A program made the translations under genes and the position numbers. Shown here one piece after another: positions 19,607 to 48,500 of a DNA stretch of 64,000 nt. The stretch is from contig BK006945.2 of NCBI GenBank assembly GCA_000146045.2, positions 160,001 to 224,000 of the forward strand. Reading direction: 5' to 3'. Below the pieces are notes generated by a model that did no database searches, had not been told where the DNA came from, and saw only the letters and a list, made by a program, of their open reading frames with translations. The DNA comes from TPA_inf: Saccharomyces (taxonomy: Eukaryota). Numbering within the stretch: the first letter of the stretch is position 1; every line of letters begins with the position of its first letter.

Positions 19607-20287
19607 AGTTCCCTCTATTATTTTTTTGCCTCTGCGGATATATTAAAAGTCTGTATATTGTCAAGTTCTTATAATATAAATCTTTTTGTTCATCATAACC
19701 ATCTTATTAATTGTTATTATTTCTATCATTATTACTATTAGCACAAATTTCATTTTTTTTTTTTTTCATTTTTCTTTAGACTTTAGCCCTAATTAGACCT
19801 GAGAAATATTATTATAACCTGAGAAAGGTTTATAAAAAGAACATTATAACCTACAAAAAAGATACTTAAACCCTGAAGTTAATAGGTTTGGACCCTCTTT
19901 TTTTTTTTTTGCTTTTTTTTAGAAAACCTCAGTATTCACAGTCTAAGGAACAGATAAAGAGAAGCTTTATGAAAGCAGTCCACAGTGCCACGAACTTTGA
20001 CATATATAATTGACTTGTGGGGGCTACCGACTGGCTTATATTTCTAAAATTTAGAGATTTGATTATCTTTTTCGCAGCGCGTAAAAGAAACCCACGAAGC
20101 ATCGCTTAATTTACACATATTCTTCGTTCTCCCCTTTTGGAGAGGATTTAAGCTAAGATATATCTTTCTTCGAGCGCAGTGCTGCTTTTGAGTTCTTTCG
20201 TTTTAATTTTCCACTTATTTGGCAATAAAAACTGAGTGAAGAGTGCTTCTCTGTCTGTTTTAGGGAGCTTTTTCAGATCATCATCAG

Positions 20288-36472: not shown

Positions 36473-36828
36473 GGGAGTTGTGTGGTATGGTGAAATGGTC
36501 GTTGGAAACAGAGGTGGAATAAAATATATACAGTAAAGAGTGGGTGATTTCCGTTCAAAGGTCTAACAGGAGCGTCGATGCGGCGGTAGGATTTTTTTTT
36601 TTTTTTCAATTTCTATATTGACATTATTATCATAATGATTGTTTCGAATATGCCCTTTCGCCTCGCCTCGATCAATAAACCTACCCGGATATTACAACAA
36701 CATAATAATACACCTGTGAAGGTAAAGAAAGAGCATTTCTCTTTTTTTTATTTTTTTTTTTTTTTACTTTCTTTACATTAAAAAAAATATGAAGAGTGTA
36801 ATAGGTAAGTATAAGTATTATTTAATCA

Positions 36829-42590: not shown

Positions 42591-43289
42591 TGCTGATTTA
42601 TTTGTTTGATCGTGGTTTTCTTAGATTGTAAAAGAATTACTTAAGGATAGGGAAAGAAACGTGAGAAATAGCAGTTAAATGTACCGGTGGTAAAAATGCA
42701 ATGCCATCATTCTTTGTTACCAAGCAAAAGTGAGAAATCTTGAAAAATTTTAGCACCTTTGAAAATTTTGCGTCAGCTCCAAGAAATTTCAGAAAATATA
42801 TTCGACAGCTTTAAATCCGTACATTTATCAAAAAAAGAATATAATATCATGTTTGACGATGTATGCTATGTAAATCATGTCATAATACGCATCAATTGAT
42901 ACTACAAATGCATCTCGGATAGAGACATTGTCATGATAATCGCAACACATGTCGCACCTGGTGCATGTTCTGAACCTTAACACTAAATATTTAAACGTCA
43001 TGTAGGGTGCGAGTCCATCTCATTCTTGCCCAATAAATTTTAGAAACACCCTCTTATGAAGGGCGGCAAAACATATTAAGTAAGTGTCGATTGTTAAACA
43101 CTTCCCCTTTTTTTATGCATAGTAAAAGGTACAAAGAAAATAGCGTACCGTCCTTAAATCAATATAGAAATATAATGAAAAAATAAGTGCTTTGATAAGA
43201 ATATCTTGAATACAAATTAAGAAGTGTATATTTATAGATATTTTCGTTTCAGCTTGTGTCTGTGTGTGGCCTTATATGTAATATATGAG

Positions 43290-44081
43290 ATGGAAGGTGA
43301 ACAAATTATGGAGTATGTTCAAGAGACACCGATCATTCCAAAAAGGATTATCCATTATTCGATTCCAAAACAAATGATCACAAAGCCCGCTCCCCATGTC
43401 GAGATGACGTTGGTAGCTAATACTTTTCGGGACATGGACTTGCCGCAGCATCCGGTTATCCATGATTGTTGGCAAAATAAAGAGTACTCAACTCAAAGAT
43501 ATTCAGGAAATGTGGCTCAACAGAGATTAAGTTTTGAGGAACATCCAAATGAAGAGTGTCAAAATTCTGTTGGGTTAATCAAGAGAGTGAGTACTTTCTT
43601 TAAAAAGAGGCCATTGTCTCGAAAGAATAGCATAAAGTCAATCGGTGACGTAAAATCGGAGGCACGTAACCGGGGAGAAGGCCTCCTGGGTGAAGTTGAT
43701 AATCTTAACGAGCAGAATGTCCGAGAAAACCTGACTAGTGAACATGAAAAGAGTCCTGAAGGAGATTCCAAAAGGTATGGCCTGTTCTCCTTTGAAGAGA
43801 CCCCCCCTATACAAGTGTTGGAGCAGGGCAATATCAATTCTGAGCTTTCTTCATTTAAAAACACTTCTTTGGCGGAAAACAAACGCTCTTCTGACAGCTT
43901 CGTTTCGTTAAAACCGGGTGAAGATGAACATAGCCCTTTAGAGATTAGTACGTGTGGTAATTTGACTGAAAGAGAGGATTTGCAATCTGGCGAAGAACGG
44001 TTTGACTCAGCAGCCCAAAATATAAAGGTAGCTTCGATGAAGGAAAAAAAAAAAATCTTCAAAGGGAACAAAACAGATTAA
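43290..44081 (+). CDS. Uncharacterized protein (YLR030W)
   Basis: Track ORF starts at GTG (43224). The first ATG at 43290 gives 263 aa starting MEGEQIMEYVQETPIIPKR. The CDS ends just after an A12 tract (44044-44055). Confidence 0.7.
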   Translation: MEGEQIMEYVQETPIIPKRIIHYSIPKQMITKPAPHVEMTLVANTFRDMDLPQHPVIHDCWQNKEYSTQRYSGNVAQQRLSFEEHPNEECQNSVGLIKRVSTFFKKRPLSRKNSIKSIGDVKSEARNRGEGLLGEVDNLNEQNVRENLTSEHEKSPEGDSKRYGLFSFEETPPIQVLEQGNINSELSSFKNTSLAENKRSSDSFVSLKPGEDEHSPLEISTCGNLTEREDLQSGEERFDSAAQNIKVASMKEKKKIFKGNKTD

Positions 44082-44224
44082 TCACTGAGATTATACGCCT
44101 CGAAAACATACTAAATAAGCATAGGAAGGCTGAAGCTAAGAATAATATTAACAAACTTGAAAAGAAGTTGAGTGAAACAGATGGTTTTACATCTGTAAAC
44201 ACATCAGTTCCAGTAACTCCTATT

Positions 44225-44785
44225 ATGCCGGTCTTAAATACGAGAACTTCTTATCCCAATATCGACTTTCATGGTACTAAGGTTTCTGATGTTCTAGATG
44301 CCTTTGAATTTGAAAAGCATGATGATCCCTTAAGGGATAAATGGAACACTTTACAGTTTTTGGAAAAGAGCTTTGAATCTAAATTTGAATCTGCATCAGA
44401 GTTAATCCAAGGAGGCGAGCTAGCTGCTATTAAAGAAAGAAATTTTCAATTAGCCAAACTAAATAATCTTTGCTTTCGGGTACGAGAGTCCATCAAAAGA
44501 AGACAAGACCTGGAGAAAAAGTTAAGAACTTTATCGCAGGACACTGACAACGAATTGCTTTTTCTGATGTTGGAAAATGAGAGAAGAAAGAAAAGTTCAG
44601 TGATAATAGAGTTTCTTTCTGAGATAATCAGAGAGAAATCCAAAAGATTAACTGCAGAAGAGCAAGGCTTTGTAAATCAAAATGAAGTAAAACCCCTCAT
44701 TCTGGACCTTTCTGCACGGATAAATAGATTGAATTCTATTCTAGAAACAAAAAATACTTGTATTAGAAGATTAAGTAATCAATAA
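44225..44785 (+). CDS. Uncharacterized protein (YLR031W), probably the C-terminal half of an ancestral single gene with YLR030W
   Basis: Track ORF starts at TTG (44168). The first ATG at 44225 gives 186 aa starting MPVLNTRTSYPN. The same reading frame is open continuously back to 44006, so it overlaps the end of YLR030W. Confidence 0.65.
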   Translation: MPVLNTRTSYPNIDFHGTKVSDVLDAFEFEKHDDPLRDKWNTLQFLEKSFESKFESASELIQGGELAAIKERNFQLAKLNNLCFRVRESIKRRQDLEKKLRTLSQDTDNELLFLMLENERRKKSSVIIEFLSEIIREKSKRLTAEEQGFVNQNEVKPLILDLSARINRLNSILETKNTCIRRLSNQ

Positions 44786-44990
44786 GTAGTTAAATTTTCA
44801 TAAATTATTACTTTCTTACATGTTAGTTGGCGCGTCGTCTGGCTGAAAATTTTACGCGTCATAAACCCTTAACTTTTCCACACATTATTCCTTACTGCTA
44901 AGCGCATTGCTCACTTGAAAGTAAATTATCTACAAAGTTACATTATCAAAAGGCCTTAGAAACACACCTAAAGTCTTACAGTATCACAAT

Positions 44991-47900
44991 ATGAGTCATA
45001 TTGAACAGGAAGAAAGGAAGAGGTTTTTTAACGATGACCTTGACACTTCAGAAACATCGTTAAACTTCAAATCTGAGAATAAAGAGTCGTTTTTATTTGC
45101 AAATAGTCATAATGATGATGATGATGATGTTGTTGTATCAGTGAGTGATACAACAGAAGGAGAGGGAGACCGATCTATTGTGCCAGTCAGGCGAGAAATA
45201 GAAGAAGAAGGCCAGAATCAGTTTATTACAGAGCTTTTAAGGATTATTCCAGAAATGCCAAAGGATCTTGTGATGGAACTTAATGAAAAATTCGGCAGTC
45301 AGGAGGAAGGGCTCTCTTTAGCATTATCACATTACTTTGATCACAATAGCGGGACGTCTATCAGCAAAATACCGTCTTCCCCGAATCAACTAAATACACT
45401 CTCAGATACCTCAAATTCAACCTTGTCCCCATCTTCATTCCATCCTAAAAGAAGAAGAATATACGGGTTCAGAAACCAAACACGATTAGAAGATAAAGTT
45501 ACTTGGAAAAGATTTATAGGTGCTTTGCAAGTCACTGGTATGGCTACCAGACCCACCGTCAGGCCCTTGAAGTACGGCTCTCAGATGAAGCTAAAGAGAT
45601 CAAGTGAAGAGATTTCTGCTACTAAAGTATATGACTCACGTGGTAGAAAGAAAGCGTCCATGGCTAGTTTGGTAAGAATTTTTGATATCCAATATGATAG
45701 AGAAATTGGCAGAGTTTCGGAAGACATTGCTCAAATACTATACCCTCTTTTAAGTTCACACGAAATAAGTTTTGAAGTTACATTGATTTTTTGTGATAAT
45801 AAACGGTTGAGTATAGGTGATAGCTTTATTCTACAATTGGATTGCTTTTTAACATCTCTCATTTTTGAGGAACGTAATGATGGAGAATCCTTGATGAAAA
45901 GAAGACGTACAGAGGGAGGAAATAAAAGAGAGAAAGACAATGGAAATTTTGGAAGAACATTGACTGAAACTGATGAAGAGCTAGAAAGCCGCTCGAAAAG
46001 ACTGGCTCTACTAAAGTTATTTGATAAATTGAGGCTAAAGCCTATTTTGGACGAGCAGAAGGCATTAGAAAAGCATAAAATAGAGCTTAATAGTGACCCC
46101 GAAATCATTGATTTAGATAACGACGAGATTTGCTCTAATCAAGTGACTGAAGTCCATAACAATCTCCGAGATACTCAGCACGAAGAAGAAACAATGAACT
46201 TGAATCAATTGAAAACATTTTATAAGGCCGCACAATCATCAGAATCTTTAAAAAGTTTGCCTGAAACAGAACCTTCTCGCGATGTCTTCAAGCTAGAACT
46301 AAGAAATTATCAAAAGCAAGGTCTTACTTGGATGCTAAGGAGGGAGCAAGAGTTTGCCAAAGCAGCCTCTGATGGTGAGGCTTCAGAAACGGGTGCTAAT
46401 ATGATAAACCCATTATGGAAGCAGTTCAAATGGCCAAATGATATGTCGTGGGCAGCTCAAAATTTGCAGCAGGACCATGTAAACGTTGAAGATGGCATAT
46501 TCTTTTATGCGAACTTACATTCTGGTGAATTTTCGCTAGCAAAACCTATATTAAAAACTATGATAAAGGGTGGCATATTATCAGATGAAATGGGGTTGGG
46601 TAAAACAGTGGCAGCGTATTCTTTAGTTTTATCTTGTCCTCACGATAGTGATGTTGTTGACAAGAAACTGTTTGATATTGAGAACACAGCAGTCTCAGAT
46701 AATCTTCCAAGCACTTGGCAAGATAATAAGAAACCATATGCTTCAAAAACAACGCTAATCGTGGTCCCAATGTCTTTGTTAACGCAGTGGAGTAACGAGT
46801 TTACAAAAGCTAATAATTCCCCCGATATGTATCATGAGGTGTATTATGGTGGGAATGTTTCCAGTTTGAAAACCCTATTAACCAAGACAAAAACCCCTCC
46901 AACTGTAGTCCTTACTACATATGGTATTGTTCAAAATGAATGGACTAAACATTCCAAGGGAAGGATGACAGATGAGGACGTCAATATATCTTCAGGCTTA
47001 TTTTCTGTCAATTTTTATCGCATAATAATCGACGAGGGTCATAACATTAGAAACAGAACGACAGTTACATCTAAAGCAGTCATGGCTTTACAAGGCAAAT
47101 GTAAATGGGTTTTAACAGGAACACCAATTATTAACAGGCTTGACGATTTATACAGTCTGGTTAAGTTTTTAGAGTTAGATCCCTGGCGGCAAATTAATTA
47201 CTGGAAGACCTTTGTATCAACGCCTTTTGAGAGTAAAAATTACAAACAAGCATTTGATGTGGTGAATGCAATTCTGGAACCCGTATTGTTAAGAAGGACA
47301 AAACAAATGAAAGATAAAGATGGTAAGCCATTAGTAGAGTTGCCACCAAAGGAGGTCGTTATTAAAAGACTTCCCTTCAGTAAATCTCAAGATCTTCTAT
47401 ACAAGTTTCTGTTGGATAAGGCTGAAGTTTCTGTTAAATCGGGTATTGCACGCGGTGATTTATTGAAAAAGTACTCCACTATCCTTGTCCATATTTTAAG
47501 ATTGAGGCAAGTCTGTTGCCATCCCGGTCTTATTGGGAGTCAAGATGAGAACGATGAGGATTTATCTAAAAATAATAAATTGGTTACGGAACAAACGGTG
47601 GAGCTTGACTCTTTAATGCGTGTTGTTTCCGAGAGATTCGATAACTCATTTTCTAAGGAGGAATTAGATGCAATGATACAAAGATTAAAAGTTAAATATC
47701 CAGACAATAAATCGTTTCAGTCCTTAGAGTGCTCCATCTGCACAACGGAACCTATGGATTTGGACAAGGCTTTATTTACAGAATGCGGCCACAGTTTTTG
47801 TGAGAAATGTTTATTTGAATATATTGAGTTTCAGAACAGTAAGAATTTGGGTTTAAAGTGCCCCAATTGCCGTAACCAAATAGACGCTTGTCGGTTGTTG

Positions 47901-48500
47901 GCATTGGTACAAACGAATAGCAACTCGAAAAATTTGGAATTCAAACCATATTCACCAGCCTCCAAATCAAGCAAAATCACTGCTTTATTGAAGGAGCTTC
48001 AATTGCTACAGGATAGTTCGGCAGGCGAACAAGTTGTCATTTTTTCCCAATTTTCTACATACTTGGATATCCTGGAGAAAGAGCTAACTCATACTTTCTC
48101 AAAAGATGTTGCAAAAATTTATAAATTCGATGGACGTCTCTCATTAAAAGAAAGAACTAGTGTATTAGCAGATTTTGCCGTTAAAGACTATAGCAGGCAA
48201 AAAATCCTATTACTCTCGCTGAAGGCTGGTGGCGTGGGTTTGAATCTAACGTGTGCTTCCCACGCTTATATGATGGACCCATGGTGGTCGCCCAGTATGG
48301 AAGATCAGGCAATCGATAGACTGCATAGAATTGGCCAGACAAACAGCGTCAAAGTTATGAGATTTATCATACAAGATAGCATAGAAGAAAAAATGCTACG
48401 CATTCAAGAAAAGAAGAGAACCATCGGTGAGGCCATGGACACAGACGAAGACGAGAGAAGAAAAAGGAGAATTGAAGAAATCCAGATGCTGTTTGAATAG
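44991..48500 (+). CDS. RAD5: SNF2-family DNA helicase / RING E3 ubiquitin ligase for error-free post-replication repair
   Basis: 1169 aa. N-terminal HIRAN region. SNF2 ATPase motifs (GILSDEMGLGKT; DEGHNIRN). C3HC4 RING (CSICTTEP...CGHSFCEKC...CPNCR) embedded in the helicase C-terminal domain. Confidence 0.93.
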   Translation: MSHIEQEERKRFFNDDLDTSETSLNFKSENKESFLFANSHNDDDDDVVVSVSDTTEGEGDRSIVPVRREIEEEGQNQFITELLRIIPEMPKDLVMELNEKFGSQEEGLSLALSHYFDHNSGTSISKIPSSPNQLNTLSDTSNSTLSPSSFHPKRRRIYGFRNQTRLEDKVTWKRFIGALQVTGMATRPTVRPLKYGSQMKLKRSSEEISATKVYDSRGRKKASMASLVRIFDIQYDREIGRVSEDIAQILYPLLSSHEISFEVTLIFCDNKRLSIGDSFILQLDCFLTSLIFEERNDGESLMKRRRTEGGNKREKDNGNFGRTLTETDEELESRSKRLALLKLFDKLRLKPILDEQKALEKHKIELNSDPEIIDLDNDEICSNQVTEVHNNLRDTQHEEETMNLNQLKTFYKAAQSSESLKSLPETEPSRDVFKLELRNYQKQGLTWMLRREQEFAKAASDGEASETGANMINPLWKQFKWPNDMSWAAQNLQQDHVNVEDGIFFYANLHSGEFSLAKPILKTMIKGGILSDEMGLGKTVAAYSLVLSCPHDSDVVDKKLFDIENTAVSDNLPSTWQDNKKPYASKTTLIVVPMSLLTQWSNEFTKANNSPDMYHEVYYGGNVSSLKTLLTKTKTPPTVVLTTYGIVQNEWTKHSKGRMTDEDVNISSGLFSVNFYRIIIDEGHNIRNRTTVTSKAVMALQGKCKWVLTGTPIINRLDDLYSLVKFLELDPWRQINYWKTFVSTPFESKNYKQAFDVVNAILEPVLLRRTKQMKDKDGKPLVELPPKEVVIKRLPFSKSQDLLYKFLLDKAEVSVKSGIARGDLLKKYSTILVHILRLRQVCCHPGLIGSQDENDEDLSKNNKLVTEQTVELDSLMRVVSERFDNSFSKEELDAMIQRLKVKYPDNKSFQSLECSICTTEPMDLDKALFTECGHSFCEKCLFEYIEFQNSKNLGLKCPNCRNQIDACRLLALVQTNSNSKNLEFKPYSPASKSSKITALLKELQLLQDSSAGEQVVIFSQFSTYLDILEKELTHTFSKDVAKIYKFDGRLSLKERTSVLADFAVKDYSRQKILLLSLKAGGVGLNLTCASHAYMMDPWWSPSMEDQAIDRLHRIGQTNSVKVMRFIIQDSIEEKMLRIQEKKRTIGEAMDTDEDERRKRRIEEIQMLFE

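Follow-up and report, generated by a model that had tools for sequence, protein, structure and literature searches.

YLR030W and YLR031W are two neighboring open reading frames on the forward strand of the window, the whole 64,000-nt stretch of DNA that was analyzed. The locus was identified by the gene that comes after YLR031W at 44991-48500, which is RAD5, coding for a 1169-aa HIRAN/SNF2/RING protein on chromosome XII of Saccharomyces cerevisiae. YLR030W is read in frame 0 from an ATG at 43290 to a TAA ending at 44081 and encodes 263 aa (C-terminus ...ASMKEKKKIFKGNKTD, followed by the stop codon). An uninterrupted run of 12 adenines (A12) lies near its 3' end, with the stop codon 26 nt downstream; positions 44044-44057 of the window should correspond to about 204,044-204,057 on chromosome XII. 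Frame 2, the frame of YLR031W, contains a TGA at 44003-44005 and is then open from 44006 across the A12 run to a TAA at 44783-44785, and its first ATG, at 44225, starts the 186-aa YLR031W. The two frames overlap by 76 nt, the A12 run lies inside this overlap, and a -1 shift would be needed to join them. A preliminary description of this region had given these coordinates, the position of the A12 run and the opening of frame 2 from 44006 to 44785, all of which hold, and had rightly calculated that one additional base or the loss of two would fuse the frames. The features of the locus are collected in Table 1.

Table 1. Features of the YLR030W/YLR031W locus, with positions counted from the first nucleotide of the window.
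Feature	Position	Strand	Basis or remark
Putative ancestral single gene, 498 codons when intact; two ORFs in the reference annotation	43290..44785	+	Orthologues, synteny
N-terminal 255 codons in common with the intact protein (YLR030W part)	43290..44054	+	Alignment, dN/dS
A12 homopolymer, coding for E-K-K-K-(I)	44044..44055	+	A12 in intact alleles too; A11 or A13 in some assemblies
Lesion site: single T, compared with TT in intact alleles (ATT = Ile256)	44056..44057	+	DNA alignment with L001
Out-of-frame tail IFKGNKTD and premature TAA (44079-44081)	44055..44081	+	Tail missing from every intact protein
56 frame-2 codons, not annotated as frame-2 coding; coding in the intact gene	44057..44224	+	Cross-species conservation
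C-terminal 186 codons (YLR031W), helical domain with homology to the Epo1-family C-terminus	44225..44785	+	hmmsearch, hhalign

The opening of frame 2 ahead of YLR031W is longer than expected by chance. Upstream of the YLR031W ATG, frame 2 runs for 73 codons without a stop, for which a probability of ~0.004 was calculated from local base composition, and stop-free runs of at least 73 codons make up only 1.7% of all such runs in the window. The first 25 nt of the interval 44057-44224 are inside the out-of-frame tail of YLR030W, and the remainder is annotated as intergenic. The position of the homopolymer is also unusual, as the window contains 14 homopolymers of at least 10 nt, and A12 is the sole one located within an ATG-initiated ORF of at least 150 aa, a class of ORF that covers 71% of the window.

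A conceptual fusion of YLR030W and YLR031W (499 aa) was used as a query against a large protein collection and was matched over 100% of its length by single proteins of 470-508 aa from five other Saccharomyces lineages. These are S. mikatae (P0009, 497 aa), S. uvarum (P0010 and P0012, 498 and 508 aa), S. eubayanus (P0011, 498 aa), S. kudriavzevii (P0013, 470 aa) and a relative with 77% identity (P0008, 506 aa), which is regarded as S. paradoxus-like solely from its intermediate divergence (dS to S. cerevisiae of 0.55, compared with 0.92 for S. mikatae). A search of this kind had been advised in the preliminary description; it returned single proteins and not two distinct orthologues, and together with the 498-aa intact alleles found within S. 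cerevisiae it bears out the proposal of one split gene of about 495 aa. Gene order agrees across the genus: RPL15 lies upstream of the gene in each of the four species identified by name, and RAD5 lies downstream in four of the five other lineages, the exception being S. kudriavzevii, in which the contig ends just past the gene.

Multi-species alignment showed that conservation is continuous through the junction of the two ORFs (...KEKKK-[I/M/F/N]-LQxEQNRLIxEIIRLENILNxHRK...), and the other species do not share the start Met of YLR031W. Pairwise Nei-Gojobori estimates were made for three segments, giving dN/dS values of 0.21-0.34 for the N-terminal 255 codons, 0.28-0.73 for 57 linker codons (of which 56 correspond to 44057-44224, out of frame or intergenic in S288C) and, for the YLR031W part, 0.13-0.17 in pairs with S. 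cerevisiae or the S. paradoxus-like sequence and 0.48 between S. eubayanus and S. uvarum. As judged from these substitution ratios, purifying selection is shown to act on the N-terminal part, the linker and the C-terminal part. The homopolymer itself is less constant: S. cerevisiae shares an unbroken A12 with the S. paradoxus-like sequence alone, with A7GA4 in S. mikatae, A10 in S. eubayanus and A7 in S. kudriavzevii.

Within S. cerevisiae, the lesion can be placed at a single nucleotide. In a pairwise DNA alignment, the junction reads GG-A12-T-CTTCAAAGGG in the window and GG-A12-TT-CTTCAAAGGG in the intact allele L001. The number of adenines is equal, and intact alleles carry A12-TT-CTTC where the window carries A12-T-CTTC, one T being missing 3' of the run. 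The codons ...GAA AAA AAA AAA ATT CTT CAA... of the intact gene become ...GAA AAA AAA AAA ATC TTC AAA... in the window. In this respect the preliminary description has to be amended: it had sought the lesion in an extra or lost A and predicted a junction of ...KEKKKK-NLQREQ..., but intact alleles also have A12, the missing base is a T, and the intact junction is ...KEKKK-I-LQREQ.... Its suggestion of counting A's across strains would have mis-scored the reference as wild type.

Eight loci (L001 and L008-L014) carry A12-TT and are open throughout. At least three frameshift alleles were found among S. cerevisiae loci, namely A12-T (the window, L006, L015, L029 and ten Logan contigs), A13-TT (L004 and L007, on two clearly different haplotypes) and A11-TT (L005 and L030). 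Intact alleles amounted to 8 of 13 non-reference NCBI and Logan loci in the survey that preceded a targeted look-up, a strain sample that is small and biased, with ten loci picked for encoding a protein identical to YLR031W of S288C. A look-up of the protein cluster found the intact 498-aa S. cerevisiae protein deposited for YJM789, EC1118 and R103, and for many strains assembled from long reads. One intact S. cerevisiae protein, P0001, has 520 aa, or 498 aa counted from the ATG, and is 99% identical to the fused query. Judging by these sequences, most of the other S. cerevisiae strains in the sample, like the five other Saccharomyces lineages, have an intact gene. The idea of a pseudogenization specific to the reference strain, raised in the preliminary description, thus survives as a lineage pseudogenization, but the allele is not private to the reference, being present also in L006, L015 and L029.

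Whether the missing T could be an error of the reference sequence has to be considered, as indels beside homopolymers are a classic class of error, and a sequencing indel had been one of the explanations put forward earlier. The assembly collection contains the exact truncated ORF, with its frameshift-specific tail, in 51 blocks (its length of 285 aa there is that of the ORF as called by a prokaryote-style gene caller). A12-T was present in 10 of 10 Logan contigs examined, which derive from separate sequencing runs and are de novo unitig assemblies, and in three independent NCBI assemblies (L006, L015 and L029). A sequencing or assembly error would need one reference-guided assembly step common to all those runs, and its probability is practically negligible; the presence of the identical truncated protein in these 51 blocks, which come from independent assemblies, excludes a sequencing error in the reference.

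The A12-T allele appears to be young. L008, which is intact, is the same as the window across 43090-44985 (1.9 kb), with the missing T as the sole difference, and on the basis of this match A12-T is one very recent event, without secondary decay. Among the other carriers of A12-T, L015 and L029 have the ORF sequence of the window unchanged, and L006 has one substitution in it. A route in two steps can also be imagined, in which slippage in the A run first turned A12-TT into A11-TT and a T-to-A change at the boundary then produced A12-T. Its intermediate does exist in L005 and L030, and L030, on a haplotype nearly identical to that of S288C, has one other ORF difference from the window. However, L008 with A12-TT is equally close to the window, and two events would be invoked where deletion of one T suffices, making this route unlikely. 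Deletion of a single T, the preferred origin, is presumably due to slippage or misalignment during replication where A12 meets TT. The description of the A tract as a slippage hotspot was apt, given the A11-TT and A13-TT alleles of other assemblies, although some A11 and A13 alleles, taken from long-read assemblies, could be homopolymer-length errors. L007 (A13-TT) belongs to the CP0064xx record series, as do YJM-named strain records; this series is presumably a short-read strain panel.

At the protein level, a Pfam scan of three full-length orthologues gave no family match. Short conserved motifs (KEYSTQ, RLSFEEH, GLIKRV..FFKK and GLFSFEETPP) are present in the N-terminal 255 residues. An AlphaFold2 (AF2) model built from a seven-sequence alignment is weak overall (mean pLDDT 45.9) and good for helix positions only. 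In this model, residues 1-245 are predicted to be disordered (pLDDT <50), a confident helix is predicted at 250-286 (pLDDT ~80-89), beginning at the lysine tract, and more helices are predicted within 346-496. The conserved motif downstream of the junction (LQxEQNRLIxEIIRLENILNxHRK), encoded by 44057-44224, belongs to the first of these helices. The frameshift falls at the start of this conserved predicted helix, which is encoded by neither of the two S288C ORFs.

Ylr031w has been named a sequence homologue of Epo1p (PMC4284228). Epo1p (YMR124W, 943 aa) is a polarisome-associated protein that tethers cortical endoplasmic reticulum (ER) to the bud tip, and its residues 761-943 (CC2/CC3) bind Pea2p, Bem3p and Scs2p (PMC4284228). 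A profile of seven orthologues, compared with 1.84 billion representative sequences, retrieved 17 proteins in all. Besides the orthologue cluster and a few short fragments, the matches were proteins of ~790-1090 aa aligned at their C-termini; hmmsearch gave E values of 1e-10 to 1e-4 against the C-termini of proteins of 900-990 aa. In a profile-profile comparison with hhalign, the YLR031W part was aligned with residues ~748-936 of an Epo1-like protein over 165 columns (98.5% probability, E 1.5e-15). Residues 1-320 reached a probability of only 2% against the Epo1 family with permissive hhalign settings, and the default comparison also recovered the C-terminal domain only. The possibility that both halves are colinear with Epo1 was considered and rejected, the profile-profile similarity being confined to the C-terminal domain. 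On these profile comparisons, homology to the Epo1 family is limited to the C-terminal ~165 aa, in the YLR031W part. The protein encoded by YLR030W/YLR031W thus resembles Epo1p in these ~165 residues, which can be aligned to the helical C-terminus of the Epo1 family, and differs from it in that the intact protein, at 498 aa, is half the size of Epo1p and its N-terminal 320 residues are without detectable similarity. The Epo1-family relatives retrieved are likewise larger, at 789-990 aa. Membership of YLR030W in a sporulation-induced gene set suggests a further difference, in the time of action.

Taken together, YLR030W and YLR031W are interpreted as one protein-coding gene, with 498 codons when intact, of which the S288C lineage carries a recent loss-of-function allele. 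A probability of about 0.93 is given to this reading, which draws on sequence comparison. One T has been deleted from the TT directly 3' of the coding A12 run. Translation from the YLR030W ATG then leaves the ancestral frame after Lys255, adds eight unrelated residues and ends at the premature stop. The 56 helix-coding codons and the Epo1-like C-terminal domain are cut off from the N-terminal half, and YLR031W represents the longest ATG-initiated remnant of the ancestral frame. The S288C mRNA would be a premature-stop transcript, probably sensitive to nonsense-mediated decay (NMD), and the A12-T allele is expected to be functionally null or strongly hypomorphic. Two features count against this reading, in that YLR031W has its own ATG and the fragments are without further lesions, the latter being explained by the recency of the mutation; the separate fragments might keep some function.

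A frameshift in a long A run could also be decoded, so that the full-length protein would be the intended product in S288C through programmed -1 frameshifting, ribosome sliding or transcriptional slippage, and programmed slippage had been among the earlier suggestions. The run offers a perfect slippery heptamer in frame 0, A AAA AAA (within GAA AAA AAA AAA ATC), and the shift needed is -1. Runs of at least A11 are known to make ribosomes slide and lose frame (PMC4363877), and polyA tracks lead to stalls and shifts of frame in a wide range of organisms (PMC5263891), so incidental low-level rescue is plausible. However, no stable fold was predicted downstream: for the 95 nt at 44056-44150, the minimum free energy (MFE) was -7.5 kcal/mol, with a z-score of +0.42 and 128 of 200 shuffled sequences doing as well. 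All relatives and the intact S. cerevisiae alleles are in one frame, the two-frame layout is not conserved, and the T deletion sits on a haplotype otherwise identical to that of the intact L008. The locus is comparable with programmed -1 sites, such as gag-pol of the yeast L-A virus, in having an X XXY YYZ heptamer and a downstream ORF in the -1 frame, but it differs from them in the absence of a stimulatory structure and of a conserved layout. It likewise resembles coding polyA tracks (PMC4363877, PMC5263891), the intact gene having an in-frame A12 at or above the sliding length of A11, whereas the uninterrupted A12, being missing in the other four species, does not resemble a conserved regulatory element. 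With the downstream fold unremarkable and the relatives in frame, the suggestion of programmed slippage finds no support, and decoding as the intended route to the S288C product is extremely unlikely. Nothing suggests designed recoding, and incidental low-level slippage may occur.

Functional gene fission would be another way to account for two ORFs, with the halves independently expressed as two proteins in the S288C lineage. Both YLR030W and YLR031W are intact ORFs with an ATG, and a ylr030w knock-out has a synthetic spore-wall phenotype, though in SK1 (PMC3744438). Against this, the start Met of YLR031W is specific to S. cerevisiae among the species aligned, both products lack the conserved helix encoded between the ORFs, and the gap from the YLR030W stop to the YLR031W ATG is only 143 nt and leaves no promoter-sized spacer. 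The mutation is also too recent for adaptation, and deleting ylr031w left the outcome of the Epo1 assay unchanged (PMC4284228). Fission of this type is judged very unlikely.

It could further be proposed that the A12/TT tract is a hypermutable on/off switch of a sporulation-induced Epo1 paralogue, with -1 ribosome sliding or slippage of RNA polymerase on the run restoring a little full-length protein in split strains, which would make this a phase-variable or leaky gene and not a dead one. The several frameshift alleles noted above, with A13-TT occurring on two haplotypes, fit such a view, which is nevertheless considered unlikely. The preferred reading is that A12-T is an ordinary strain-specific null allele of a single gene.

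Clues about the role of this gene come from studies of sporulation and of ER tethering. YLR030W belongs to a set of 301 sporulation-induced genes that were knocked out in SK1, and in this strain the ylr030w knock-out combined with a dtr1 deletion lowered dityrosine fluorescence (PMC3744438). Given this induction and the genetic interaction with dtr1 seen in SK1 (PMC3744438), the function of the YLR030W/YLR031W gene may lie in sporulation. The effect examined upon deletion of ylr031w in the Epo1 assay was on ER-bud-tip tethering (PMC4284228). From its homology, the intact protein might act via its Epo1-like C-terminal helices, perhaps in sporulation. The Ndt80 middle-sporulation element CRCAAAW was also searched for, and one copy was found upstream, at 42766-42772 on the reverse strand; the window contains 45 copies compared with 56 expected, and with no enrichment in the window the motif was dropped as evidence for sporulation control.

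The split of YLR030W and YLR031W belongs to a known type of event. In a study by Dietrich, Magwene and McCusker, 'potential null alleles' of S288c are described that have one stop codon or frameshift and originally received two names, for example YDL037C/YDL039C (IMI1) (PMC12157680). YLR030W/YLR031W shares with this class a single ORF in other strains and other Saccharomyces species, fragments annotated as two uncharacterized genes in S288c, and one lesion that is reversible by one mutation. It differs from IMI1 in the nature of this lesion: where IMI1 has a stop codon, YLR030W/YLR031W has lost one nucleotide next to an A12 run within the coding sequence. The intact 498-aa protein is already present in public annotation as 'YLR030W-like protein' and as EC1118_1L10_1024p, and the papers searched that name either ORF do not discuss the split of this pair.

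The chief worth of the finding lies in the correction of annotation and of experimental design. Both reference ORFs are fragments of one gene, and large-scale data in which each is scored as a gene of its own are misleading. Negative results in S288C-derived strains may merely reflect a gene that is already broken, and the absence of an effect of ylr031w deletion on tethering (PMC4284228) says little if the strain used carries the split allele. For the species as a whole, the long coding A run emerges as a recurrent frameshift site within S. cerevisiae.

An N-terminal extension of 22 codons, initiated at a GTG upstream of the YLR030W ATG (MYIYRYFRFSLCLCVALYVIYE), appears in ORF listings and in the Logan proteins (285/520 aa), but it arises artefactually, from calling ORFs with the bacterial code, and in orthologues the start is the ATG, not the upstream GTG. 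In the CP0064xx/CP0063xx-series chromosome XII records (L008-L014), the ORF is intact (A12-TT), yet only the 186-aa YLR031W is annotated, without YLR030W; EC1118 has two overlapping entries, one of 498 aa and one of 186 aa. These 186-aa entries are annotation-transfer artefacts of the S288C model.

Within this lysine-rich gene, long A runs in the coding sequence seem to arise and disappear. The S. mikatae orthologue (L003) has an interrupted tract at the junction (A7GA4), and a separate A11 run, without interruption, close to the 5' end of the gene (about 1578-1588, codons about 26-30; ...GGTTCC-A11-TTACA..., coding for PKKKI). Five other homopolymer runs of the window lie outside long ORFs (see table), and four of them form two pairs spaced about 150 bp (19753/19898 and 36592/36751) that may flank promoters or nucleosome-free regions. 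The Ndt80 element core, about 520 bp upstream of the YLR030W ATG, is a motif that showed no enrichment when counted across the window.

The A12-T split allele is also present in two Logan contigs, L025 and L027 (SRR12125346, SRR5284325), which differ from the window in two 28-bp blocks of YLR030W, where all changes are synonymous. This recoding looks like a designed, PCRTag-style one from a synthetic chromosome, possibly Sc2.0 synXII. The two-ORF layout was retained in the design.

Features of the locus and of the window (window positions)
Feature	Position or locus	Strand	Remark
GTG-initiated extension	43224-43289		22 codons
Homopolymer runs, 13-16 nt (five)	1652-1667, 19753-19766, 19898-19910, 36592-36606, 36751-36765		all outside long ORFs
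CGCAAAA, Ndt80 middle-sporulation-element core	42766-42772	-	one copy, RPL15A-YLR030W intergenic region
Recoded 28-bp blocks, YLR030W	43676-43703, 43892-43919		L025/L027, window equivalents
Single changes, YLR031W (n=2)	44275, 44479		L025/L027, window equivalents
Intron-bridged gene models	L004, L005, L029, L030		strains with frameshifted allele

In automatic NCBI gene models of S. cerevisiae (proteins P0002, P0003, P0004-P0006 and P0034), a spurious intron spans the frameshift, giving proteins of 436-477 aa without the junction region. In frameshifted strains, a null allele is masked by these intron-bridged models.
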